The notes below the pieces were generated by a model. The model made no database searches. It worked only from the letters and a program-made list of their open reading frames with translations, and was not told the origin of the DNA. A program made the translations under genes and the position numbers. 64,000 bases of DNA from Eledone cirrhosa (Eukaryota), in contig OZ024741.1 of NCBI GenBank assembly GCA_964016885.1, positions 33,728,001-33,792,000 of the forward strand, read 5' to 3'. This document shows positions 5,154 through 62,588 of this stretch, piece by piece; the first letter of the stretch is position 1; every line of letters begins with the position of its first letter.

Positions 5154-5200
5154 CTTCTACAGGACTAGAACTGTTTCATTCGTGAGAAATCATCAGGAAG
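5154..5200 (-). ncRNA. Type I hammerhead, family A (element about 5070-5220)
   Basis: Minus strand: CTTC CTGATGA T TTC tcac GAA T GAAA CAG ttctagtc CTG TA GAAG; family copies at 36487-36650, 40803-40960, 57355-57553. Confidence 0.8.
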
Positions 5201-5220
5201 ATCTGATGATTTCTCACGAA

Positions 5221-9616: not shown

Positions 9617-9720
9617 GTCCGAGAGATGTAATTGTTATTGAGGCGGTCTGTATAATTTTATTTTTATCATTCTGTCTGTTTCATGGTTAAATATTTCAAA
9701 CAAATGTAGTTCTTCAACCC

Positions 9721-10240
9721 TCGTAATATTGGACACACGATTTACTGTGTTTATTACTCGTAATATTAGACACACGATTTACTGTGTTTATTACTCGTAA
9801 TATTGGACACACGATTTACTGTGTTTATTACTCGTAATATTAGACACACGATTTACTGTGTTTATTACTCGTAATATTGGACACACGATTTACTGTGTTT
9901 ATTACTCGTAATATTAGACACACGATTTACTGTGTTTATTACTCGTAATATTGGACACACGATTTACTGTGTTTATTACTCGTAATATTGGACACACGAT
10001 TTACTGTGTTTATTACTCGTAATATTAGACACACGATTTACTGTGTTTATTACTCGTAATATTGGACACACGATTTCCTGTGTTTATTACTCGTAATATT
10101 AGACACACGATTTACTGTGTTTATTACTCGTAATATTAGACACACGATTTACTGTGTTTATTACTCGTAATATTAGACACACGATTTACTGTGTTTATTA
10201 CTCGTAATATTAGACACACGATTTACTGTGTTTATTACTA
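9721..10240. repeat. 37-bp minisatellite, about 14 copies
   Basis: Unit TCGTAATATT(G/A)GACACACGATTTACTGTGTTTATTAC repeated head to tail with no spacers. Confidence 0.95.
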
Positions 10241-13954: not shown

Positions 13955-15702
13955 ATTATCATTATCGTCGTCGTATTCATTATAATCGTCACCATCATCA
14001 TCATTACCATCCTTCTCTTCATCATCATCATCATCATCACCAACGACGATGTCATTACTATCACTCTATCAACATTAACCCATCACAGACCTCCAATCGT
14101 CAGTAAAGGAACATAATGCTCTATTTTCCAATCAAATTTCTTTTACCGATATTGTTGATCTGAACTTATATTATTGACTTTTCCTTCAACCTTGTAAATT
14201 CGTATTCACGTAAGAGGTCGGCCCTGGGGATAGGGCAGTCTTTTTGGAAAGTCTGTCTTGTCTCTTCCATTCATTCAATGTTGTTGTTACAACTCACATC
14301 AGGACAGCCTGCAAAACCTTATATGACATTGAATCTCAAATGAGATTTCCTGGTGTTTTAGTGGTAAAGGCTACTGTACTATCATATCACCATTTAGTTT
14401 TTTCAGTGTTATGAAGCGAAGATTGAACTCAGAATACACAGAGCCGGAGCATAAACCGCAAGGTACCCTGTACGGTGCTCTAGCAGTTCCACCATTCCTC
14501 TGCTCTGTAGTGGTGCTATATTTTATTGAACACAAGAGGGTGAAAGGCAAAGTTAATCTGATCATGTATTTAACAAGTCTACCAATCTATCGTTCTGGAC
14601 TGGTGCTTGCTTAGCTGAGAAAAGTGAGCATTCTCATACAGAACTTTGCTTATGTCATAGTTAACAAAGTGCACGGTACATAAGTATGGAACTATATTAC
14701 GGGCAAAACTTCATTTTCCTCACAGACTGGGTTGTGTCGAAGCAGCCGAAACACATGTTTTCGCGATATTTAGTTTTATAATAATTGTATTTCCTACAGT
14801 ATTTTTGTGTGTATATTTTAGTAGATTATTTTAGTTTTATTCCTTTATATCGAGTACTTTGTTCTTTGGCACATGACTTAGTAGGTATGGTGTGGCGTCA
14901 CGGTCATAATGTCGAGGTTTCGTTTCCCTTACCATGTGTTTTAAAGCGACGGCTGTCGACAATTGGGCTGTTAAATCCTAGGCTCTCTGTTCAAGACGTC
15001 CAACCGTACAATAGAGTTCAACTGCATAAAGTCGTTTATTTTATACAAACCAGTGTAATTATAGTAAAGACAGAGCATACAAGGCATGCGGCCTCGTGAG
15101 TCATCCCACGTGAGACACAAACGTAGAATAGTTCATTGTCACTTGATAGGGGAGGATAGGGGGTGAACATGTGCACTATCAGACACACACGCCGGTAGCG
15201 TTCAGTCTTCCTCATACTGTGCGATGCGTTTTAACTTTGAGCAAAGCACTTCAGTTGACGTTGCTCCAGTTCACTCAGCTGAAACCCAGAACCAGTGGCA
15301 GAAGTCTACGGGGGGAGTTGTGTACTCTCAGTCGCGTAATGTCAAATGAAACGTTAATAAGCTCCGGCCTTTGTCTCTCTTGTGTAAGGAAAGACTGTTC
15401 CTGTGACAAAAAATGTATATGTTGAGATATATTGAGAAATATCTATGAATATTTATGATTTGTGTGTGTGTGTGTGTGCACACATTTGTACACTACACAG
15501 AGGTACATACATATACATAGATACACACACATACATGATGTCATAATTATAAGCCATAAGTAGATACATTCAGCTAGTTCTGACTTACACAAACGTATGA
15601 GAGAAAGATTTATATCCTGAACTATTAATCATCAACACTGTGTCCCTCGTGCGAATTTGATGGACATCCTTTGTATCAATTACAACTGTACTTCTATGGC
15701 TG

Positions 15703-15761
<59 letters not shown>

Positions 15762-15897
15762 ATGTCAGTTTAAGTGTCAGTATGTCTATGTGCAAGTGAG
15801 TTTAGTGAGTGCGTGCATGCAAAGTTAATGCTCGCGCCCGTCTGGGGGTGAGGGTTGGTCGCAGGAGATCCGTACACACAACGGTTCACACGTAACA

Positions 15898-15948
15898 TCC
15901 CTGATGAGGCTCTGCAAATGTTGAAAACTGATCCTGAAACACTTTGGG
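15898..15948 (+). ncRNA. Degenerate hammerhead-like motif
   Basis: TCC CTGATGA GGCTC...GATCC T GAAA CACT TT GGG; mismatches in stems II and III. Confidence 0.4.
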
Positions 15949-16094
15949 GGAAATTATTACCAAAAACAAATAAATAAGTAAAAGTGCATTTTTATTTTTA
16001 TATTTTTAATTTGTTGTTGTGGTAGTGATGGGGATGGTGGTGGTGGTGGTGGGGGAGGTGGTGGTGGTATCATTATTATTATTATTAAAATTAG

Positions 16095-16285
16095 GGCGGT
16101 GGATTGGCAGTATCGGTAGAGGGTCTGACGCCATGCTTTGCAGCATAGAGTTACGGCCCTTTATGGTCTGAGTTCAAATCCCACCGAGGTTAACTTTGCC
16201 TTTCATCCTTACGGGGTCGATAAAATAAAGTACCAGTAAAACATTGGGATAATTGCTGGCCTTATAACAAAAGTAGAAACAATTA
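16095..16285 (+). mobile_element. tRNA-derived SINE, main family
   Basis: A-box TGGCAGTATCGG, B-box GAGTTCAAATCC, core GAGGTTAACTTTGCCTTTCATCCTTACGGGGTCGATAAA resembling the MetaSINE/Sauria-type core; (ATT)n tail. Confidence 0.9.
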
Positions 16286-16294
16286 TTATTATTA

Positions 16295-16337
<43 letters not shown>

Positions 16338-16711
16338 CATCATCATCATCAAAACTTCCCAAACTCTCTTTTAATGCCAGCTTAAAGAGAAACCCCCAGC
16401 GGGAGTAATAGATAGTCGAGAAGAGATTGGGAAGATAAATAACTGCATATGAAATTTCCTACCTATTGCAACTTACTACTGCTGCTGCTGCTACTACTAG
16501 TACTACTACCCCCACCAATAATAATAACAACAATAGCTGTTGTTGTTGTTGTTGCTGCTGTTGTTGTATTGAATATAGGTACAAGGCTAAAAACGCGGAT
16601 CAGAAGTATATCTTCTGTGGCTGGCAGAGAAGTATTATATTGCTTGTGTTTCATTTCAATATTTAGGTGGCTTAGGTAACTGTAGATTATACTAATGTAT
16701 AAATAATAATA

Positions 16712-17105
16712 ATTGTTTCTACTTTAGGCACAAGGCCAGCAATTATCCAGTGCATTACTGGTACTTTATTTTATCGACCCCGTAAGGATGAAAGGCAAAG
16801 TTAACCTCGGCGGGATTTGAACTCAGAATGGCAAGGGCCGTAACTCTATACGTCAAAGCATGGCGTCCGACCCTCTACTGATACTGCCAATCCATCGCCC
16901 TACTAATAATAATAATGATTTGTACTATAGGCACGAGGCCAGCAATTTGTGGGGAGGGAAAAGTCGATTAACTCGGCCCCAGTGCATTACTGGTGCTTAT
17001 TTTATCGACCCCGTAAGAATGAAAGACAAAGCTAACATCAGCGGGATTTGAACTCAGAACGTAAAGGGCCATTACTCTATGCCGCAAAGCATATTCGACT
17101 CTCTA
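16712..17105 (-). mobile_element. Two tandem copies of the tRNA-derived SINE
   Basis: Reverse complement of the same head and core at about 16712-16900 and 16925-17105. Confidence 0.85.
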
Positions 17106-17354
17106 ACGACAAGAACAACAACAACAGCAACAACATTTTAGCAGCCATAAAGGTCCATATATATATATATATATGTATAGGAAACGCGTCATACAAAGGG
17201 ACTGCAAAACGCCGGGGAGTTATACATACATGCACACACATATATATATATGTGTGTACGTATATATATGGATTTTAGTCTTCACATTTATTATTATTAC
17301 TATGTACGTTTATATATATATATATATATATACATGCATATGCACATATATATT

Positions 17355-17388
<34 letters not shown>

Positions 17389-17393
<5 letters not shown>

Positions 17394-19304
17394 ATAAATG
17401 CTCTGAAATAGCGATATATATGTGAATATAGACATAGAATATTCGAAAATATTCTGTATGTTTATAATAAACATTTTGAAGACCTAATCGCTATAGAATA
17501 GAATACGTCACGTATTACAATTAGATTCTCGATAAAAGCAAGGGAAGTAATCTACGCGTTTCATTCTCGTTAGAAATCATCAGGACTACATATCCAGTGC
17601 TTTTATCGAAAATGACACAGCTAGAGACTTATAGAATACTTAGCTGTGTACAGGAACTGGTTTGAAAGAGCGGTTGCCGGTCCGGCAGAAATTAGAAATT
17701 GGAATAAATGCTCTGAAATAGCGATATATATGTGAATATAGACATAGAATATTCGAAAATATTCTGTATGTTTATAATAAACATTTTGAAGACCTAATCG
17801 CTATAGAATAGAATACGTCACGTATTACAATTAGATTCTCGATAAAAGCAAGGGAAGTAATCTACGCGTTTCATTCTCGTTAGAAATCATCAGGACTACA
17901 TATCCAGTGCTTTTATCGAGAATGACACAGCTAGAGACTTATAGAATACTTAGCTGTGTACAGGAACTGGTTTGAAAGAGCGGTTGCCGGTCCGGCAGAA
18001 ATTAGAAATTGGAATAAATGCTCTGAAATAGCGATATATATGTGAATATAGACATAGAATATTCGAAAATATTCTGTATGTTTATAATAAACATTTTGAA
18101 GACCTAATCGCTATAGAATAGAATACGTCACGTATTACAATTAGATTCTCGATAAAAGCAAGGGAAGTAATCTACGCGTTTCATTCTCGTTAGAAATCAT
18201 CAGGACTACATATCCAGTGCTTTTATCGAGAATGACACAGCTAGAGACTTATAGAATACTTAGCTGTGTACAGGAACTGGTTTGAAAGAGCGGTTGCCGG
18301 TCCGGCAGAAATTAGAAATTGGAATAAATGCTCTGAAATAGCGATATATATGTGAATATAGACATAGAATATTCGAAAATATTCTGTATGTTTATAATAA
18401 ACATTTTGAAGACCTAATCGCTATAGAATAGAATACGTCACGTATTACAATTAGATTCTCGATAAAAGCAAGGGAAGTAATCTACGCGTTTCATTCTCGT
18501 TAGAAATCATCAGGACTACATATCCAGTGCTTTTATCGAGAATGACACAGCTAGAGACTTATAGAATACTTAGCTGTGTACAGGAACTGGTTTGAAAGAG
18601 CGGTTGCCGGTCCGGCAGAAATTAGAAATTGGAATAAATGCTCTGAAATAGCGATATATATGTGAATATAGACATAGAATATTCGAAAATATTCTGTATG
18701 TTTATAATAAACATTTTGAAGACCTAATCGCTATAGAATAGAATACGTCACGTATTACAATTAGATTCTCGATAAAAGCAAGGGAAGTAATCTACGCGTT
18801 TCATTCTCGTTAGAAATCATCAGGACTACATATCCAGTGCTTTTATCGAGAATGACACAGCTAGAGACTTATAGAATACTTAGCTGTGTACAGGAACTGG
18901 TTTGAAAGAGCGGTTGCCGGTCCGGCAGAAATTAGAAATTGGAATAAATGCTCTGAAATAGCGATATATATGTGAATATAGACATAGAATATTCGAAAAT
19001 ATTCTGTATGTTTATAATAAACATTTTGAAGACCTAATCGCTATAGAATAGAATACGTCACGTATTACAATTAGATTCTCGATAAAAGCAAGGGAAGTAA
19101 TCTACGCGTTTCATTCTCGTTAGAAATCATCAGGACTACATATCCAGTGCTTTTATCGAGAATGACACAGCTAGAGACTTATAGAATACTTAGCTGTGTA
19201 CAGGAACTGGTTTGAAAGAGCGGTTGCCGGTCCGGCAGAAATTAGAAATTGGAATAAATGCTCTGAAATAGCGATATATATGTGAATATAGACATAGAAT
19301 ATTC
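17389..19304 (-). mobile_element. 310-bp tandem array (6.2 units), one hammerhead per unit; non-LTR retrozyme-like
   Basis: Unit starts at 17391, 17701, 18011, 18321, 18631, 18941, 19251; only one substitution noticed between units; minus-strand hammerheads at 17547-17589 + n*310. Confidence 0.9.
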
Positions 19305-19595
19305 ATCGCTATTTCAGAGCATTTATTCCAATTTCTAATTTCTGCCGGACCGGCAACCGCTCTTTCAAACCAGTTCCTGTACACAGCTAAGTATTCTATA
19401 AGTCTCTAGCTGTGTCATTCTCGATAAAAGCACTGGATATGTAGTCCTGATGATTTCTAACGAGAATGAAACGCGTAGATTACTTCCCTTGCTTTTATCG
19501 AGAATCTAATTGTAATACGTGACGTATTCTATTCTATAGCGATTAGGTCTTCAAAATGTTTATTATAAACATACAGAATATTTTCGAATATTCTA

Positions 19596-19603
<8 letters not shown>
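19305..19603 (+). mobile_element. Inverted, nearly full copy of the 310-bp unit
   Basis: Sequence switches to the reverse complement of the array at 19305 and runs into (TA)n. Confidence 0.92.
19441..19483 (+). ncRNA. Type I hammerhead of the 310-nt unit
   Basis: GTAGTC CTGATGA T TTCT aacg AGAA T GAAA CGCG TA GATTAC; stem III palindrome ACGCGT; stem I extended by ATTCTCGATAAAAGCA/TGCTTTTATCGAGAAT. Confidence 0.88.
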
Positions 19604-19643
<40 letters not shown>

Positions 19644-19672
19644 TATGCACATATATATATATTTGTATATAT

Positions 19673-20940
19673 ATAGCGGCGATGAATTAGTTTAGCGAGG
19701 TTTTTTATATGAAATCGTGTGTCGAAACAAATATTGTTATACTTGGGGAGGGTCATATTTGTGTAATATTGCCAGAATTAATAACAGAACACACTCACTG
19801 TTTGGTTGGTTTTCGCTTCTCGCTGTCTTTTATATCTGTAATCTAACTTACTCGGTCCTCAATGTTGCCATTTACTGACCGACGGTCAAAAATAATACAG
19901 ATACAATATAGACACAAACACATATATATATAGTTTACATAAATCTTTCGTTGCACATCTGCAACATCGTCAGTGGTGTTATATTCTTTGTTCCTCCTGT
20001 TGTGTTGTATGTCTACGCCATTTTTTATTCAGTCTGTCTATATATTTATTTATTTATTTGCTTGTTTGTTTATTTTATTTTGTCTTCGTTGCGCATGCGT
20101 TTGCGTGTGTGTATAGTGTTATGTTTGCTGTGTGACTAGTGTGTATAGTGTTATGTTTGCTGGGTGACTAGTGTGTGTTTATGTGCTTGTTGTTATTGTG
20201 CTTGTGTATGTATTTATTTATCTTATTTTATTTACTTATTTATACTTCTCTTAGGTCAGTGTTGTTTGTTTGGGTGTTGTTGTTATTCCACTCATTCTTT
20301 CTGTTTAGCTTTGGTCTTCTAATTTCTATTTCACTGGCCTCTCTGATTTGCCTATCTGCTGGGTCATTTCTATGTTTAGATATTATTCTAATTTCTATGT
20401 TCTCTATGTTACCGTCATGTTGTTGTCTAGCATGTTCGTATAGTACTGACCCGTTTTTTCGTCCTTTTAGTTCCCCCCAGTGTTGGTCTATCCTTTCACC
20501 TATGCTACGAGCTGTCTCACCTATGTATGTTGTTGTCATGTTTTTGCAAGTACCCTCTGTACATCTTATGCTATAGACTACGTTTCTATTTTTACAGTTT
20601 ATCCGGGGGTTCACCTTACATATGATACATTTCCTATTGGTACAGTGGGTTTTCTTAAAAGGGTAGGTTTTGCTGATCAGGGATTTTATGGTGGTTCCTG
20701 GCTTTTCTACCACCTTTATTTTTAAGTGGGTCTTTCTCAGGGCCTTTCTACACTGGTTAGCTAATTTCCCTCCAGGGGTGGCGTCCACAAACATGACACT
20801 CTGGTATCTCTGGTTGTCGTACCATGATGTGGCTTTCCCTATCTTATGTCTAGCCCTATCTAAGCTATTCCATGATTTGCTCCTGTATAATGGGCAAATT
20901 CCTTTCATGTCCAGTTCTATGAGGGTCTTATACTTTTCCA
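19673..20940 (-). mobile_element. Penelope-like element, inverted 3' arm (GIY-YIG plus pLTR)
   Basis: Near-exact reverse complement of 21228-22505; ORF 20240-20998 is chimeric across the inversion junction. Confidence 0.92.
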
Positions 20941-20941
20941 C

Positions 20942-21928
20942 CTCACTCTCAATGATCATCTCCACACATCTTTTCACGAGAGAGCCCAAATTCTCCACTC
21001 ACACTATGCTAAACCCATGGCCTCCAAATACCTGATACTCAAAAACTCAGCAATGTCCAGTAGTGCTAAGTTTAATATTCTGATCGCAGATTTGGTACGA
21101 GTGATGAAGAATGTGTCCAGCATGTGCGACCCAACAGAAATGGAAAGACACATCCAACACTTCATCAACCGCATGCAGTTCTCTGGCTACAACCAAAGAG
21201 ACAGAGTCAGAGTATACGAAGGAGCCATGGAAAAGTATAAGACCCTCATAGAACTGGACATGAAAGGAATTTGCCCATTATACAGGAGCAAATCATGGAA
21301 TAGCTTAGATAGGGCTAGACATAAGATAGGGAAAGCCACATCATGGTACGACAACCAGAGATACCAGAGTGTCATGTTTGTGGACGCCACCCCTGGAGGG
21401 AAATTAGCTAACCAGTGTAGAAAGGCCCTGAGAAAGACCCACTTAAAAATAAAGGTGGTAGAAAAGCCAGGAACCACCATAAAATCCCTGATCAGCAAAA
21501 CCTACCCTTTTAAGAAAACCCACTGTACCAATAGGAAATGTATCATATGTAAGGTGAACCCCCGGATAAACTGTAAAAATAGAAACGTAGTCTATAGCAT
21601 AAGATGTACAGAGGGTACTTGCAAAAACATGACAACAACATACATAGGTGAGACAGCTCGTAGCATAGGTGAAAGGATAGACCAACACTGGGGGGAACTA
21701 AAAGGACGAAAAAACGGGTCAGTACTATACGAACATGCTAGACAACAACATGACGGTAACATAGAGAACATAGAAATTAGAATAATATCTAAACATAGAA
21801 ATGACCCAGCAGATAGGCAAATCAGAGAGGCCAGTGAAATAGAAATTAGAAGACCAAAGCTAAACAGAAAGAATGAGTGGAATAACAACAACACCCAAAC
21901 AAACAACACTGACCTAAGAGAAGTATAA
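20942..21928 (+). CDS. PLE ORF C-terminus: RT thumb (HSHYAKPMAS), zinc linker (CTNRKCIIC), GIY-YIG endonuclease (NVVYSIRC...YIGETARS...R...H...REA...LN)
   Basis: Frame is open from the inversion junction through ATG 21017 to the stop at 21928; RT catalytic core is absent. Confidence 0.88.
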   Translation, partial: LTLNDHLHTSFHERAQILHSHYAKPMASKYLILKNSAMSSSAKFNILIADLVRVMKNVSSMCDPTEMERHIQHFINRMQFSGYNQRDRVRVYEGAMEKYKTLIELDMKGICPLYRSKSWNSLDRARHKIGKATSWYDNQRYQSVMFVDATPGGKLANQCRKALRKTHLKIKVVEKPGTTIKSLISKTYPFKKTHCTNRKCIICKVNPRINCKNRNVVYSIRCTEGTCKNMTTTYIGETARSIGERIDQHWGELKGRKNGSVLYEHARQQHDGNIENIEIRIISKHRNDPADRQIREASEIEIRRPKLNRKNEWNNNNTQTNNTDLREV

Positions 21929-22191
21929 ATAAGTAAATAAAATAAGATAAATAAATACATACACAAGCACAATAACAACAAGCACATAAACACACACTAG
22001 TCACCCAGCAAACATAACACTATACACACTAGTCACACAGCAAACATAACACTATACACACACGCAAACGCATGCGCAACGAAGACAAAATAAAATAAAC
22101 AAACAAGCAAATAAATAAATAAATATATAGACAGACTGAATAAAAAATGGCGTAGACATACAACACAACAGGAGGAACAAAGAATATAACA

Positions 22192-22231
22192 CCACTGACG
22201 ATGTTGCAGATGTGCAACGAAAGATTTATGT
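22192..22231 (+). ncRNA. Minimal hammerhead-like motif in the PLE pLTR
   Basis: CTGACGA T GTTGCA gatg TGCAAC GAAA GATT TA; perfect stem II but weak stem I; also at 19937-19976 (-), 36200-36240 and 59563-59603. Confidence 0.6.
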
Positions 22232-22578
22232 AAATTATGTAAACTATATATATATATGTTTGTGTCTATATTGTATCTGTATTATTTTTGACCGTCGGTC
22301 AGTCAATGGCAACATTGGGGACCGAGTAAGTTAGATTACAGATATAAAAGACAGCGAGAAGCGAAAACCAACCAAACAGTGAGTGTGTTCTGTTATTAAT
22401 TCTGGCAATATTACACAAATATGACCCTCCCCAAGTATAACAATATTTGTTTCGACACACGATTTCATATAAAAAAACCTCGCTAAACTAATTCATCGCC
22501 GCTATATATATACAAATATATATATATGTGCATATGTATATATATATATATATATATATACAAATATATATGTGCATA

Positions 22579-22682
<104 letters not shown>

Positions 22683-35335: not shown

Positions 35336-35569
35336 TTGCTTACGCATGCGTGTGTGCAGTCAATTACTTTTATAGCTGTATGAGTCATTAACTGGTCTTC
35401 CAAGAAATAGATACACGATATGATATATTGAGTGCTTTATTTTCGTTTGCATGTGAACGCATACACCCCCAAAACACACACATACATATATATGTGTGTA
35501 TATATATATGTGTGTATATATATATATATGTGTGTATATATATATGTGTATATATATATATGTGTGTGT

Positions 35570-36435
35570 GTACTAATAGGAAATGTGTTATATGTAAAGT
35601 AAAGCCCCGGATAAACTGTAAAACTAGAAACGTAGTCTATAGCATAAGATGTACAGAGGGTACTTGCAGAAACATGACGACAACATACCTAGGTGAGACA
35701 GCCCGTAGCATAGGAGAAAGGATAGACCAACACTGGGGGGAACTAAAAGGACAAAAAACGGTTCAGTACTTTACGAACACGCCAGACAACAACACAACGG
35801 TAACATAGACAACATAGAAATTAAAATAATATCTAAACATAGAAATGACCCAGCAGATAGGCAAATCAGAGAGGTCAGTGAAATAGAACTTAGAAAGCAA
35901 AAGCTAAACAGAAAAAATGAATGGAATAACAACAATACCCATACAAACAATACTGACTTAAGAGAAATATATAATAAATAAATTAAAATATATATATACA
36001 AGCACAATAATAACAAACACATATAAACTAAGATAGGATGCAATAACCAAAACACAGTCACCCAAACGCGAACACACACCAAACACTATACACACACGCA
36101 AGCGCATGCGCAGAGAAGAAGACAAAATTAAATAAATAAATAAACAGATAAAATAAAAATGGCGTAGAAACACAATACAACAGGAGGAACATAATAGCAC
36201 CACTGATGATGTTGCAGATGTGCAACGAAAGAACTTTGTTAGACTATATATATGTGTTTATATCTATATTATATCTGTATTTTTGACCGTTGGTCAGTCA
36301 ATGATAAACATTGAGGACCAAATGAATTAACTGTGGAGATATAAAAGATACAGAAGGAAAACCAACCAAACAGTGAGTGTGTTCTGTTATTATTTCTGGC
36401 AATATTATTACAACAATATGACCCTTCCCAAGTAT

Positions 36436-36440
<5 letters not shown>
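35570..36440 (+). mobile_element. Older 5'-truncated copy of the same PLE family (GIY-YIG with frameshift plus pLTR)
   Basis: CTNRKCVICKV...NVVYSIRC...YLGETARS; clearly alignable to 21525-22443. Confidence 0.9.
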
Positions 36441-36490
<50 letters not shown>

Positions 36491-36849
36491 GGGGTTTAAT
36501 CAGGGGTAACCACAGTAAGTATGGTTTATCCCGGGTTCAATCAGGGGTAACCACAGTTAGTAAGGTACTCAACACCACAAAGCAGGGTATAAATATTTAA
36601 TATAGACTAGAACTGTTTCATTCGGGAGAAATCATCAGGAAGCTGACTGTCCAAGTAATATGGTGGTATTTATATCTTTTCTGGTGGTAGGAGAGGGTGG
36701 TGATTGGGATGGGTGGAGGTCATTGGTTGATGGGTTTAAAGAAAAGGGAATTCTTTAAAAACTATATTTAGAGTAACAAAGGCAGAAAGAATATATATAT
36801 ATATATATATATATATAAGTAGAAAAAAACCACAAACCCTCCATCTCAA

Positions 36850-44760: not shown

Positions 44761-44854
44761 ATTATCTCCCAAACAGATGAAAACTAAATTACCCATTACT
44801 ACTGTATTGTTTCAACATTCCCTGGTTTCACTCCTCGTGCCTTTCATGTCTGAA

Positions 44855-46200
44855 TACACATCTGTGTACATATACACACACATAACTACATACACATATA
44901 TACACATCTGTGTACATATACACACACATAACTACATACACATATATACACATCTGTGTACATATACACACACATAACTACATACACATATATACACATC
45001 TGTGTACATATACACACACATAACTACATACACATATATACACATCTCTGTGTACATATACACACACATAACTACATACACATATACACATCTCTGTGTA
45101 CATATACACACACATAACTACATACACATATATACACATCTGTGTACATATACACACACATAACTACATACACATATATACACATCTCTGTGTACATATA
45201 CACACACATAACTACATACACATATATACACATCTGTGTACATATACACACACACATAACTACATACACATATACACATCTCTGTGTACATATACACACA
45301 CATAACTACATACACATATGTACACATCTGTGTGTACATATACACACACATAACTACATACACATATATACACATCTGTGTACATATACACACACATAAC
45401 TACATACACATATATACACATCTCTGTGTACATATACACACACATAACTACATACACATATATACACATCTGTGTATATATACACACACATAACTACATA
45501 CACATATATACACATCTGTGTACATATACACACACATAACTACATACACATATATACACATCTCTGTGTACATATACACACACATAACTACATACACATA
45601 TATACACATCTCTGTGTACATATACACACACATAACTACATACACATATATACACATCTGTGTATATATACACACACATAACTACATTCACATATATACA
45701 CATCTGTGTACATATACACACACATAACTACATACACATATAAACACATCTGTGTGTACATATACACACACATAACTACATACACATATATACACATCTG
45801 TGTGTACATATACACACACATAACTACATACACATATATACACATCTCTGTGTGCATATACACACACATAACTACATACACATATATACACATCTCTGTG
45901 TACATATACACATACATAACTACATACACATATATACACATCTGTATGTACATATACACATAGATAACTACATACACATATATACACATCTGTGTGTACA
46001 TATACACATACATAACTACATACACATATACACATCTGTGTGTACATATACACATACATAACTACATACACATATACACATCTCTGTGTACATATACACA
46101 CACATATACACACGTATACACATCTGTGTGTACATATACATACACATAACTACATACATACATATACACACATATACACATCTGTGTGTACATATGCAAT
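44855..46200. repeat. 46-48 bp minisatellite built from CA/TA microsatellite
   Basis: Unit ACACATCTGTGTACATATACACACACATAACTACATACACATATAT, about 28 copies. Confidence 0.93.
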
Positions 46201-46461: not shown

Positions 46462-47660
46462 ATAACAGAGATAACTTAAAGCTAAACTCCGACTGGTAAC
46501 CATCTCACTCAACAAACATTAGGTTATACGTTAGTATAAACTCAATTTAAGTGTTTGGGGTGCTAACTATATGTATTTTGTGGAAAGCCAGTTGTATTAT
46601 TTTATATGAGATATAATTAAAGTTAAAATATATCTCTCTTTCCAAACAATTGTTTCATTATAAGTTTTCTACAAGTTGGGAGAATGTTTCCAGTTTATGT
46701 AGAAGCCTAACATATTTTCATGTAAGAAAATATTTAGGTGGGCACTTATAAATCGTCAGTGGAAGCCCATTAAACTTTGATATAAGAAAAAATTTCTTAC
46801 CGCAGTTAATTTTCGTGTCCGTTAAGTTGTCCCTTCACGCATCGAATGACCGCCAAATTTGAAATTCCAGCAGTCTTTTGACTGAGGAAGTATCATAGCG
46901 TCATGAAGCGGAAAAGGGAGACAACCACGAGTCACGAGAAAAGTAAAATAATATACACGTGGGTTAATTAGTTTTTTCAAAAACATTATCAATCCTGCGT
47001 GTTAAGAACTCAATTAATTTAAAAAAATAAATGTATGCGTGTATTAATTACACACGCATATAGATATTTTCTTAGGCTAAAAACAGAGAAGTGATACCTA
47101 AAAACCAACCACATCTCATAACTGTAATCAATACGGAAAGTTACGCTTTAAAAGGCATTTGGGAATGTAAATCTCTGGCCAAATTAAGAGTAAAATATTT
47201 AATACACGCGAGTTAATTAGTTATTTCAAAACCAATATTATTTCGCGTGTTAAGAACTCAATTAATTTTTAAAAATAAATGTATGCATGTAATTATTTAC
47301 ACACGCATATAGATATTTTCTTAAGCTAAAAACAGAGAAGTGATACCCAAAAAAAACAAGCAATATCTCATAACAGCAATAAATACGGAAAGTCATGTTT
47401 ATAAGGTACCTGGAAATAAAAAATCTCTGGCCAAATCAAGAGTAAAATATTTAATACAATAACAGAGATAGCTTAAAGCTAAACTCCGACCGGTAACCAT
47501 CTCACTCAACAAACATTATTCCAGCAGTCTTTTGACTGAGGAAGTATCATAGCGTCACGAAGCGGAAAAGGGAGACAACCACGAGTCACGAGAAAAGTAA
47601 AATAATATACACGTGGGTTAATTAGTTTTTTCAAAAACATTATCAATCCTGCGTGTTATA
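46462..47660 (-). mobile_element. Diverged family D element with internal and partial tandem duplications
   Basis: 46462-46520 repeated at 47459-47518; 46866-47003 repeated at 47519-47657; about 250-bp internal repeat. Confidence 0.75.
46640..46764 (-). ncRNA. Type I hammerhead with branched stem II, diverged family D
   Basis: Minus strand: TTCCA CTGACGA T TTATAAGT ... ACTTATAA T GAAA CAATTG TT TGGAA. Confidence 0.85.
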
Positions 47661-57421: not shown

Positions 57422-57548
57422 ATATTTAATATAGAAATGGCTTCTACAGGACTAGAACTGTTTCATTCGTATAAAATCATCAGGAATTTCCTGATGATTT
57501 CATACGAATGAAACGATTCTAATCCTGTTAGAAGCCATTTCTATATTA

Positions 57549-59203: not shown

Positions 59204-59494
59204 TCGAAAAGCTATCCGAAAATACTAGGTTCTATATACATAGAATAATTTTTTTCGTATACTTTTTTCGAAATCTTTATTAGTGGTCGTGTATGTAGGG
59301 TTTTGAGGGGAAGAGGGAAAAGGAGCCCTTCCCATTTCTAAGTTACTTTTACTTATTCTTGTACCCATTCCCCACAACACCCCGACAAAACTGATAACAA
59401 ACATGTAATCTATTTCAAAATTATCTATAATCTTTCACTGCAGTTCATTTCCTGTCTTGATTTTAATGACATATATATATATGTCATATATAAA

Positions 59495-59800
59495 TAAATA
59501 AATAAACAGACTAAATAAAGATGGCGTAGGCATACAATACAACGGGAGGAAACATAATAGCACCACTGACGATGTTGCAGATGTGCAACGAAAGAACTTT
59601 GTTAGACTATATATATGTGTTCGTATCTATATTGTATCTGTATTTTTGACCGTTGGTCAGTCAATGGTAGCATTGAGGACCGAATAAATTAAATTAACCG
59701 ATATAAAAGACACAGAAGCGAAAACCAACCAAACAGTGAGTGTGTTCTGTTATTATTTCTGGCAATATTATTACACAAATATGACCCTCCCCAAGTATAA
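59495..59800 (+). mobile_element. Solo pLTR/3' tail of the main PLE family
   Basis: Aligns to 22130-22443 and 36135-36440. Confidence 0.85.
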
Positions 59801-59827
59801 AAATATATATATATGCGTGTGTGTGTG

Positions 59828-61598: not shown

Positions 61599-62055
61599 TA
61601 AAAGAGAAAACACACGTAAGCATTAAGAGAAGGATTTTATCCAGGTATTTACGACCGTTTCATTGGTAAGTGCAACCTTATATTGCTATACTGCAAATAG
61701 CAGCCACTCAATTATAATTGTTGTTCACAGTCCAAATTTTCAAAATAGTAAGTTACTCTTGAAATAATTCTTAATATATAGAGAAAAACATTTATTTGGA
61801 ATTGTATTTACTAGTATAGAGAGAGAGGAATCAGGAGGTGAGGGGACAGACGGAATAGTATAGAGAGAGAGGAAGGGGGAAGAGGTAGGAAGTAGAATGA
61901 CAAACTGAGATGGAGGGAGGGGTAGAGGTGGAAGGATTCCTTGGTCAGTTTTGATAGCAGACTTCATGTCGTGGAATGTAGTGAGTTAAAGAGAATTAAA
62001 TTGATCATAGTGGGAGGGATGGATAGGGAGGGAGAGAGGGGGGAGATATAAAGAG

Positions 62056-62088
<33 letters not shown>

Positions 62089-62225
62089 ACGAAGGAAATG
62101 TGGTAAGGAACCAGGTGGACCATAACGCACCAAAGTACTCAATACTTGAGGTAGTAGAGTGGGTAATAGGAACCAGTAAGACCCCGACAGCTGAGCTCAA
62201 GCCGTTTCGACGGCTAATTCTGGAC

Positions 62226-62588
62226 GAATGTAAAGTTATAACTGACACCAATTCCTTCACCTATTTTGGCTCCACTTCCACCTCCTTTAAAGCTCGTCTT
62301 TATAATCATCATTCGTCTTTTAAATACCAACTTAAAAGAACCAACACGGCTCTCTCAGAACTCATATGGTCCTTGAAAGACAAAAATATTAAATATAACA
62401 TCTCTTGGAAAAAGGTTTCTTCTGCTTCTCCATACTTGAACAGTTCTCTATCCAAGACTTGCAATCTCTGTCTAAATGAAAAATTTACCATTATATCTAA
62501 TTTAGATTCTATAATAAATAGACGCACTGACTTGTTTTCTCTCTGCTTGCATAAATTCCACAGAACATTCCATAAAGTATACAGCTAA
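62226..62588 (+). pseudogene. 5'-truncated GIY-YIG endonuclease of a second PLE lineage
   Basis: TYFGSTSTSFKARLYNHHSSF...TALSELIWSLK...I.W...CNLCLNEK..I....INRR...C.H; fused behind an inverted family B fragment. Confidence 0.82.

Follow-up and report, generated by a model that had tools for sequence, protein, structure and literature searches.

How does a tandem array of short, protein-free units, each carrying a hammerhead motif, come to lie head-to-head with an inverted copy of its own unit inside a (TA)n tract? Such an array is found in the window analysed here, a stretch of 64,000 nucleotides of Eledone cirrhosa DNA. The locus touches on two wider issues: the enzyme that moves animal retrozymes and the template that it uses are left open in the available text of PMC7229834 and of a 2026 preprint (bioRxiv 10.64898/2026.07.22.740005), and the origin of the inverted arm and of the one-sided tail of Penelope elements is left open in that of PMC8557442.

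Repeat analysis recovered the arrangement of the original prediction, i.e. 6.18 units whose hammerhead lies on the minus strand, followed by an inverted 0.97 unit, set in (TA)n (Table 1). The tandem part comprises 6.2 copies of 310 bp with 99% matches. Units 2-6 are identical and unit 1 differs by one base at 17610, the sole differing base of the locus; the inverted arm shows zero mismatches to the unit, and its junction with the long arm is flush. We number the 310-nt unit as RNA, starting at the base after the GUA cut. On this scale the outer ends read at 165 in the left arm and 127 in the right arm, and as predicted neither coincides with the cleavage site. The predicted offset between the two ends in monomer coordinates is present, but it measures 38 nt and not the claimed 40-45 nt, where a few nt of the end positions vary with the assignment of shared AT bases. 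The unit has a G+C content of 107/310. No stop-to-stop frame of at least 120 aa lies over the array, and the RT plus GIY-YIG ORF of an autonomous Penelope-like element is absent there.

Table 1. Coordinates of the array, its predicted ribozymes and priming sites, and the adjoining sequences in the window.
Feature	Position	Strand	Remarks
Long arm, 6.18 units	17388..19304	-	RNA 3' (outer) end at site B, 165; inner end 109
Short inverted arm, 0.97 unit	19305..19604	+	Inner end 138; outer end at site A, 127; haplotype as long arm
Site A tract (unit 1), RNA 123-139, closest to (UA)n within the unit	17414..17430	-	
Site B, RNA 163-172, predicted single-stranded (inverted arm)	19330..19339	+	
Hairpin UGCCG-GAC-CGGCA directly 3' of site B	19343..19355	+	Candidate enzyme-binding element, a lead only
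Hammerhead 1 of six	17547..17589	-	Predicted cut between 17553 and 17552, every 310 bases
Hammerheads 2-6	17857-17899, 18167-18209, 18477-18519, 18787-18829, 19097-19139	-	
Hammerhead of inverted arm	19441..19483	+	Predicted cut after 19477; stem I extended by a 14-16 bp stem
Neighbouring 5'-truncated Penelope-like element, head-to-head	19676..22503		Arms 19927-20940 and 21228-22241, 1,014 nt, 100% complementary
GIY-YIG-type C-terminal frame of neighbouring element	20891-21928	+	
Hammerhead-like core in neighbouring element	near 22187 (+), 19981 (-)		
Left flank, (TA)n	17311..17387		GCATATGCAC(AT)4TTGTA at 17336
Right flank, (TA)n	19605..19675		GCATATGCAC(AT)6TTGTA at 19641

A motif scan finds type I hammerhead motifs in all seven complete copies of the window array, six on the minus strand and one on the plus strand. 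Each consists of stem I (GUAGUC/GAUUAC), CUGAUGA, stem II (UUCU/AGAA over a U-U pair), GAAA, ACGCGU and the GUA site, and the predicted fold of the unit has z = -5.35, with 0/100 shuffles equally stable. Rfam gave no hammerhead match to the array, either at the gathering score or at E<=10, and returned only sub-threshold microRNA-type matches to AT hairpins; the ribozyme call therefore rests on the motif and its stems. Stem III is predicted to form between molecules (-9.5 kcal/mol), and a monomer hairpin is absent from the prediction. Together with the axolotl parallels in PMC7229834, the stem III prediction makes dimeric cleavage of the unit plausible. In a Xenopus preprint (bioRxiv 10.64898/2026.07.22.740005), 8/9 predicted retrozyme dimers did not cleave, and we count this, along with the missing Rfam recognition, against our best explanation. 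Fixed variants in the hammerhead fall at N7, in loop 2, or preserve the stems; the lack of fixed changes in the core partly reflects sampling, because 50/89 of the loci compared were located by exact ribozyme anchors. In 24/89 loci the change 287U>A re-forms the basal pair of stem II, and in 9 loci a one-base insertion beside the cut site (RNA position 3) is fixed in all units.

Pattern searches of the whole genome reveal a dispersed family with thousands of matches, and not a single locus. A 31-base core pattern has 4,226 exact matches (control, 0), and a pattern search finds 1,627 plus-strand arms that reach (AT)8 no more than 310 bases from the ribozyme; the reverse-strand arm count of 26,424 was discarded as inflated by overlapping starts. 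From these searches the family is estimated, not counted, at 1,600-2,000 loci with 14,000-19,000 units. We parsed 89 loci, namely the window array, 10 core-pattern matches, 40 head-to-head matches and 38 loci found by an end pattern, all except the window on contig C1; the second array of L060 (identical with L136) was removed, L148 and L154 were merged as continuations, and positions 29-47 of L049 were left out of the variant counts. Eighty loci are inverted with both ends read, 4 have a single arm, and in 5 an end lies in a gap or beyond the range covered; no LTRs are present in any parsed locus. Singleton variants amount to 4.3e-4 per nt over 851 units, marking a young family. The array belongs to this young, genome-wide, protein-free 310-nt family, and its assignment to the retrozymes was borne out by the non-coding 310-nt unit, the GC content below 50%, the hammerhead motif in each unit and the dispersed copies.

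The original prediction took the array ends to be arbitrary, and this proved wrong for the outer ends. All 89 outer ends in loci not selected by their ends lie within RNA 118-172 of the 310 positions and form two clusters, site A at 118-140 nt after the cleavage site and site B at 154-172, with end peaks at 130, 139, 165 and 167; these class limits were set after the data had been seen, and the few lowest values of each cluster are alignments halted by a nearby variant. The inverted loci all combine one A end with one B end (80/80, and 46/46 of those not end-selected), 26-47 nt apart with a median of 35 in the 80 loci, and the left side is occupied by either site (38 vs 34). Genome-wide, the exact 165 end has 1,013 matches and the exact 130 end 682, and among loci selected for a B165 end 43/45 are inverted or gap-obscured and 2 have a single arm. 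Because the single-arm loci end at A (L048, L165) or at B (L145, L162), each site can prime alone. The ribozymes of the family are oriented head-to-head in 566 matches (gap <=330) versus 0 tail-to-tail (gap <=290), where 566 is a lower bound because junctions with wide ribozyme spacing were left uncounted. Together with the single haplotype across both arms, described below, this orientation agrees with the predicted twofold priming at (TA)n.

An (AT)5 stretch lies within 30 nt of 82/87 outer ends. Site A is the best (UA)n-like tract of the unit, and the target can therefore pair there; site B has just 1-2 bases matching the target and is a predicted single-stranded stretch ahead of a small hairpin. 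At two targets outside (TA)n (L064, L090) the ends still lie at or beside A and B, suggesting that a protein sets the ends.

Scatter is confined to the inner (RNA 5') ends (R=0.18, p=0.064 for the full set of 45 B165 loci in C1:0-121 Mb). An earlier signal of inner-end clustering (p=0.001) was a product of sample choice that did not hold in this complete set. Head-to-head junctions are flush or overlap by 1-3 bases in 48/78 cases and carry 1-21 inserted bases in 20, and three make use of a self-complementary 16-base stem within the unit. Arm lengths range from 0.06 to 45 units and fit a single exponential (KS p=0.40, 84 arms), with no enrichment of whole-unit lengths (16/84 within 0.1 of an integer), and the two arms of a locus are at most weakly correlated in length (rho 0.23, p=0.05). 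The cleavage site is crossed by 135/144 arms, with 648 crossings in total, and 3/144 inner ends lie within 5 nt of it versus 4.6 expected. These crossings without an excess of stops exclude, for 135/144 arms, a cut linear monomer that is copied once. Informative flank repeats of 19-61 bp occur in 13/74 loci compared with 2.4 after shuffling, and about six abut both ends. Target duplications of 25-61 bp abutting both ends are seen in L046, L047, L058, L068, L073 and L079; L073 and L079 have the widest A-B distance and are among those with the longest duplications.

We then asked what the two arms of a locus reveal about their template. The arms agree in haplotype in 80/82 loci (shuffled mean 13.4, maximum 23 of 5,000), and at 16 loci a variant private to that locus in the sample is present in both arms. 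There are 38 haplotypes among the 89 loci, nearly all of them uniform along up to ~20 units. The variants divide into 35 fixed, 113 singletons and 16 intermediate entries in 9 loci. In the register test (65 loci, excluding L049, L084, L130, L137 and open loci), the 178 in-register units covered by both arms contain 2 shared and 40 unshared minor variants, compared with 10-20 shared ones expected if all templates were uncut multimers, a figure that presumes source arrays with half to all of today's singleton load. The uniform arrays would be accounted for by a single unit that was copied again and again, for which a circle is the simplest form. Thus, the predicted single-unit template, copied repeatedly, agrees with the fixed/singleton pattern at most loci and fails at about six that carry signals of a multimer or a switch. 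In L080, read inward from the outer end, each arm has the haplotype order X X Y Y...; a minor variant is common to the two arms in L150 and L169, where it is in register, and in L068 and L136, where it is out of register; and in L144 the haplotype changes mid-arm in the B arm, which stops at 123 beside site A. To explain these six loci, either the template must have been multimeric or switched, or one arm must have converted the other, and they count against a circle-only account because a monomer circle alone gives none of these patterns. The monomer circle is the likely majority template, judging from the genomic copies, beside loci with a multimeric or switched template.

Among the longest arms, variants repeat at a block spacing of 7 units in L136 and of 5 units in L135. 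In the 45-unit arm pieced together from L154, L182 and L071 (G000:C1:97461509-97476480) two linked variants are scattered along the length. By its variant pattern, this arm is a case of local amplification after insertion.

Fixed and singleton variants also differ in kind. Within well-predicted stems, 8/9 fixed changes keep pairing compared with 6/30 singletons (Fisher p=3.6e-4), pointing to selection on the predicted RNA structure. A>G makes up 10/32 fixed versus 5/90 singleton substitutions (p=5e-4), with the direction taken relative to the window haplotype, and A>G at 276, 259 and 20 recurs on different backgrounds. A-to-I editing of paired RNA would yield A>G; tolerance of G-U pairs, RT bias and recombination between haplotypes could be further contributors.

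Among known systems, the family is close to the metazoan non-LTR retrozymes of Cervera and de la Pena 2020 (PMC7229834), which include HHR_Amex1/2 of the axolotl and elements of coral and mussel. It shares with them a unit of 170-400 nt, one type I hammerhead, low GC, no ORF and long target duplications; the palindromic stem III resembles that of HHR_Amex1 and the U-U at the base of stem II that of HHR_Amex2. That study demonstrates circles, whereas here the circle is a likely reading of the genomic copies, and it proposes, without a genomic test, that LINE or Penelope enzymes make tandem cDNA on circular templates. Its main text, as far as available, gives no account of head-to-head arms, two fixed ends, identity of arm haplotypes or an A>G skew. 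Li, Clavereau and Pollet 2026 (bioRxiv 10.64898/2026.07.22.740005) describe vertebrate retrozymes as pLTR derivatives and propose that co-occurring Penelope-like elements move them. Their case, in the preprint text at hand, is built on co-occurrence and homology, with local amplification (satellite birth) also discussed, whereas in our comparison with one family we find no pLTR homology and the insertion anatomy points to arrays that were born multimeric.

The insertion anatomy itself is that of EN+ Penelope-like elements, which likewise have a head-to-head 5'-truncated arm, an AT-rich or (TA)n target and a hammerhead motif. Naiad and Neptune have a 5'-truncated copy in inverted orientation, plus a tail of 30-40 bp that is often confined to one end (PMC8557442), and in PAc of Anolis the tail was mapped to two internal RT start sites, with an enzyme that cuts and extends both strands and is predicted to be a dimer (PMC11167929). 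Our median A-B distance of 35 nt agrees with this 30-40 bp tail (PMC8557442, PMC11167929). In vitro, use of the start sites was equal between strands and uncut RNA was the main substrate (PMC11167929); the strict A plus B pairing in 80/80 of our loci stands in contrast to that lack of strand difference, and we count both the substrate and the strand results against our best explanation. For head-to-head Penelope copies of Adineta, self-priming on an antisense template has been put forward (PMC3846280), but the two target-abutting 3' ends seen here would fit two target primers better. Unlike Penelope-like elements, the array has no ORF, and both of its arms are multimers of one 310-nt unit.

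In L1 twin priming both target strands prime on one RNA, which leaves an inversion, RNA 3' ends at the flanks and microhomology at the junction. There the inversion is a side product, whereas in the 310-nt family it is the rule; the family also differs in that its second site is fixed and the first cDNA passes the second primer. In the retrozyme and Penelope literature covered, including PMC3846280 and PMC7761336 and setting aside subscription papers and supplements, we found no mention of retrozyme arrays lying head-to-head, of strict pairing of A with B, of identity of arm haplotypes or of an A>G skew. The retrozyme class is known, and in that literature we did not find this insertion anatomy described.

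The array adjoins a Penelope-like element (Table 1), which invites the question of whether the two are partners. The (AT)6-then-(AT)4 pair that flanks the array also follows the other arm of the neighbouring element, at 22511 and 22559. This shared pair indicates that the array probably lies nested in the duplicated flank of the neighbour, and the adjacency then shows a shared target and not a partnership. The GCATATGCAC flank pair was accordingly rejected as a target duplication of the window array, since the same pair is present inverted at the neighbour's far arm and is absent from 30 other copies. The neighbouring family has 467 genome matches, and its opposite arm ends ~60 nt upstream of the main end in 13/30 loci, a pairing of the A plus B kind; two main ends within a 3-kb locus were seen in 0/30 of the loci checked. 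The copy in the window is unlike these 30 others, as both of its arms end at the B-type end with the same flank motifs inverted (17311-17387, 19605-19675, 22504-22647); it possibly arose from a read-through template primed in the flank, or one arm may later have converted the other.

A longer copy of the neighbouring family matches RVT_1 at E=2.8e-4, under the curated cut-off, and the family's frame falls into GIY-YIG clusters at a score of 0.96-0.97 with a family share of 13-23%. A PDB search with the ORF of the neighbouring element returned nothing below E=0.045, and Pfam gave no GIY-YIG match to it. Between the start regions of the unit and this one tested Penelope family there is no significant homology (1,065/2,000 shuffles as good), and the comparison does not single out this family as the partner. 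A post hoc motif, TAATT-N2-6-GCCG-NNN-CGGCA, beside B ends has 64 matches compared with 6 for the control and, as a lead, is nearly confined to the 310-nt family and the neighbouring one. Within the neighbouring family, a piece of upstream RT sequence lies at the junction of the window copy, near 20941-20998; the longer copy (L129:1298-3838) has an asparagine-rich stretch ahead of the RT, as in Adineta Penelopes (PMC3846280), and in L128:1846-3102 a Penelope-like frame of another kind lies between two of the family's ends.

Taken together, the array is probably a non-LTR retrozyme insertion made by a Penelope-type RT into (TA)n from both cut strands on one RNA, mostly a single-unit circle. Transcripts of the arrays would be cleaved at GUA, where the hammerheads probably act as dimers, and the products would be ligated into circles of 310 nt. 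A Penelope GIY-YIG domain would then nick both strands of an AT-rich target tens of bases apart, and priming would start at B from one target end and at A, ~35 nt upstream, from the other, never at the same site, as the observed ends suggest. Each cDNA would circle the template for a roughly exponential length, passing through the ribozyme sites, and the free cDNA ends would be joined head-to-head, giving the junctions seen, mostly flush or with an overlap of 1-3 nt. At about 6/82 loci the source would be an uncut multimer or a switch of template, and local enlargement may later have lengthened a few of the very long arms. A more specific version is possible and is put forward tentatively: a Penelope-type dimer on one 310-nt circle may cut both (TA)n strands and start two rolling reverse transcriptions, one on each strand, at two fixed sites 35 nt apart, in which case each of the estimated 1,600-2,000 loci would be a many-fold readout of a single RNA, including A-to-I edits of the circle that turn into heritable DNA variants.

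The same ends could be left by two-site Penelope priming on an uncut linear multimeric transcript of an older array, with homogeneity coming from a few uniform masters and with no circle. The unit order common to both arms in L080, L150 and L169 speaks for such a template, as do the stop of the L144 B arm beside site A, which L1-type twin priming predicts, the dominance of uncut RNA as in vitro substrate of the anole enzyme (PMC11167929), and the weak stem III and U-U pair, which would slow cleavage. We nevertheless consider it unlikely, given that the 38 mostly uniform haplotypes would demand frequent single-unit bottlenecks, that the in-register overlap shares just 2/42 minor variants, that B arms stop at site A in 8/72 loci versus 5.3 expected, and that only 3/59 minor variants are found at another locus as well. 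A monomer that is cut but not ligated, its 5' and 3' ends held by stem I and its extension as a nicked circle across which the enzyme jumps each round, would produce the same uniform arrays, and the arms of L131, L132, L137 and L152 do stop at 3-14 on the first pass. This appears improbable, since the 144 arms together cross the site 648 times with few changes next to it, stops within 5 nt are not in excess (2/86 versus 2.8 expected) and related retrozymes are largely covalent circles (PMC7229834).

Explanations at the DNA level fare poorly. Block duplication in the longest arms (L071, L136, L135) is what one would expect if Penelope-like insertions of one or two units had expanded in place by unequal crossing-over or slippage. 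As a general account this is very improbable: intermediate variants are rare relative to the 113 singletons, most loci would require independent expansion of the two arms, and arm lengths follow the single exponential. Long palindromes and tandem repeats assemble poorly, and N gaps lie at the array in 4/89 loci, which could point to an artefact or to spread as DNA, i.e. rolling amplification of circular DNA or fold-back repair. Against this stand the strict polarity, the two fixed ends, the distinct junctions, the long target duplications and fixed variants that preserve stems and are skewed to A>G, and contigs of the public run X3, which may be the assembly's own sample, run into (TA)n at 17693 (B170) and 17724 (A139). 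An assembly artefact is very unlikely because 80 further loci have individual junctions and flanks; we regard this last group of explanations as already largely refuted and give it next to no credence.

Further sequences related to these elements are found in the window and in public data. Short elements at 5173-5220, 36615-36646 and 57460-57515 have a hammerhead-like core (CUGAUGA UUUC..CGAAU GAAAC) that is 82-89% like that of the retrozyme over 28 bases, and two of the three are head-to-head and adjoin (TA)n; they form another family and a candidate source of the retrozyme ribozyme. More Penelope-like fragments lie at 35392-36450, 59470-59810 and 62052-62588, with two endonuclease-like frames and two pLTR relatives that have hammerhead-like cores at 36195 and 59558 and end at the A-type end. 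The motif scan lists CUGAnGA...GAAA cores with short stems at 46874, 47528, 47832, 33759 and 3698. Two young minisatellites occupy 9720-10239 (37 bp, 14 copies, 97%) and 44854-46170 (46 bp, 28 copies, 93%). Runs X1 and X2, which have different organism codes and an unrecorded run kind, each contain a single 340-base contig, self-closing over the unit.

As far as genomic footprints go, the 310-nt family answers both the question of enzyme and template in animal retrozymes and that of the arm and tail of Penelope elements. It provides a 310-nt substrate, two predicted start sites and a known target, which is enough for a direct test in vitro. Should the tentative reading of a dimer on one circle be true, the Penelope tail and inverted arm would be explained in general. 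If the circle reading holds, the family would represent a natural case of rolling-circle reverse transcription primed from a chromosomal cut, in which satellite-like arrays are born full-length and changes made at the RNA level enter the germ line.
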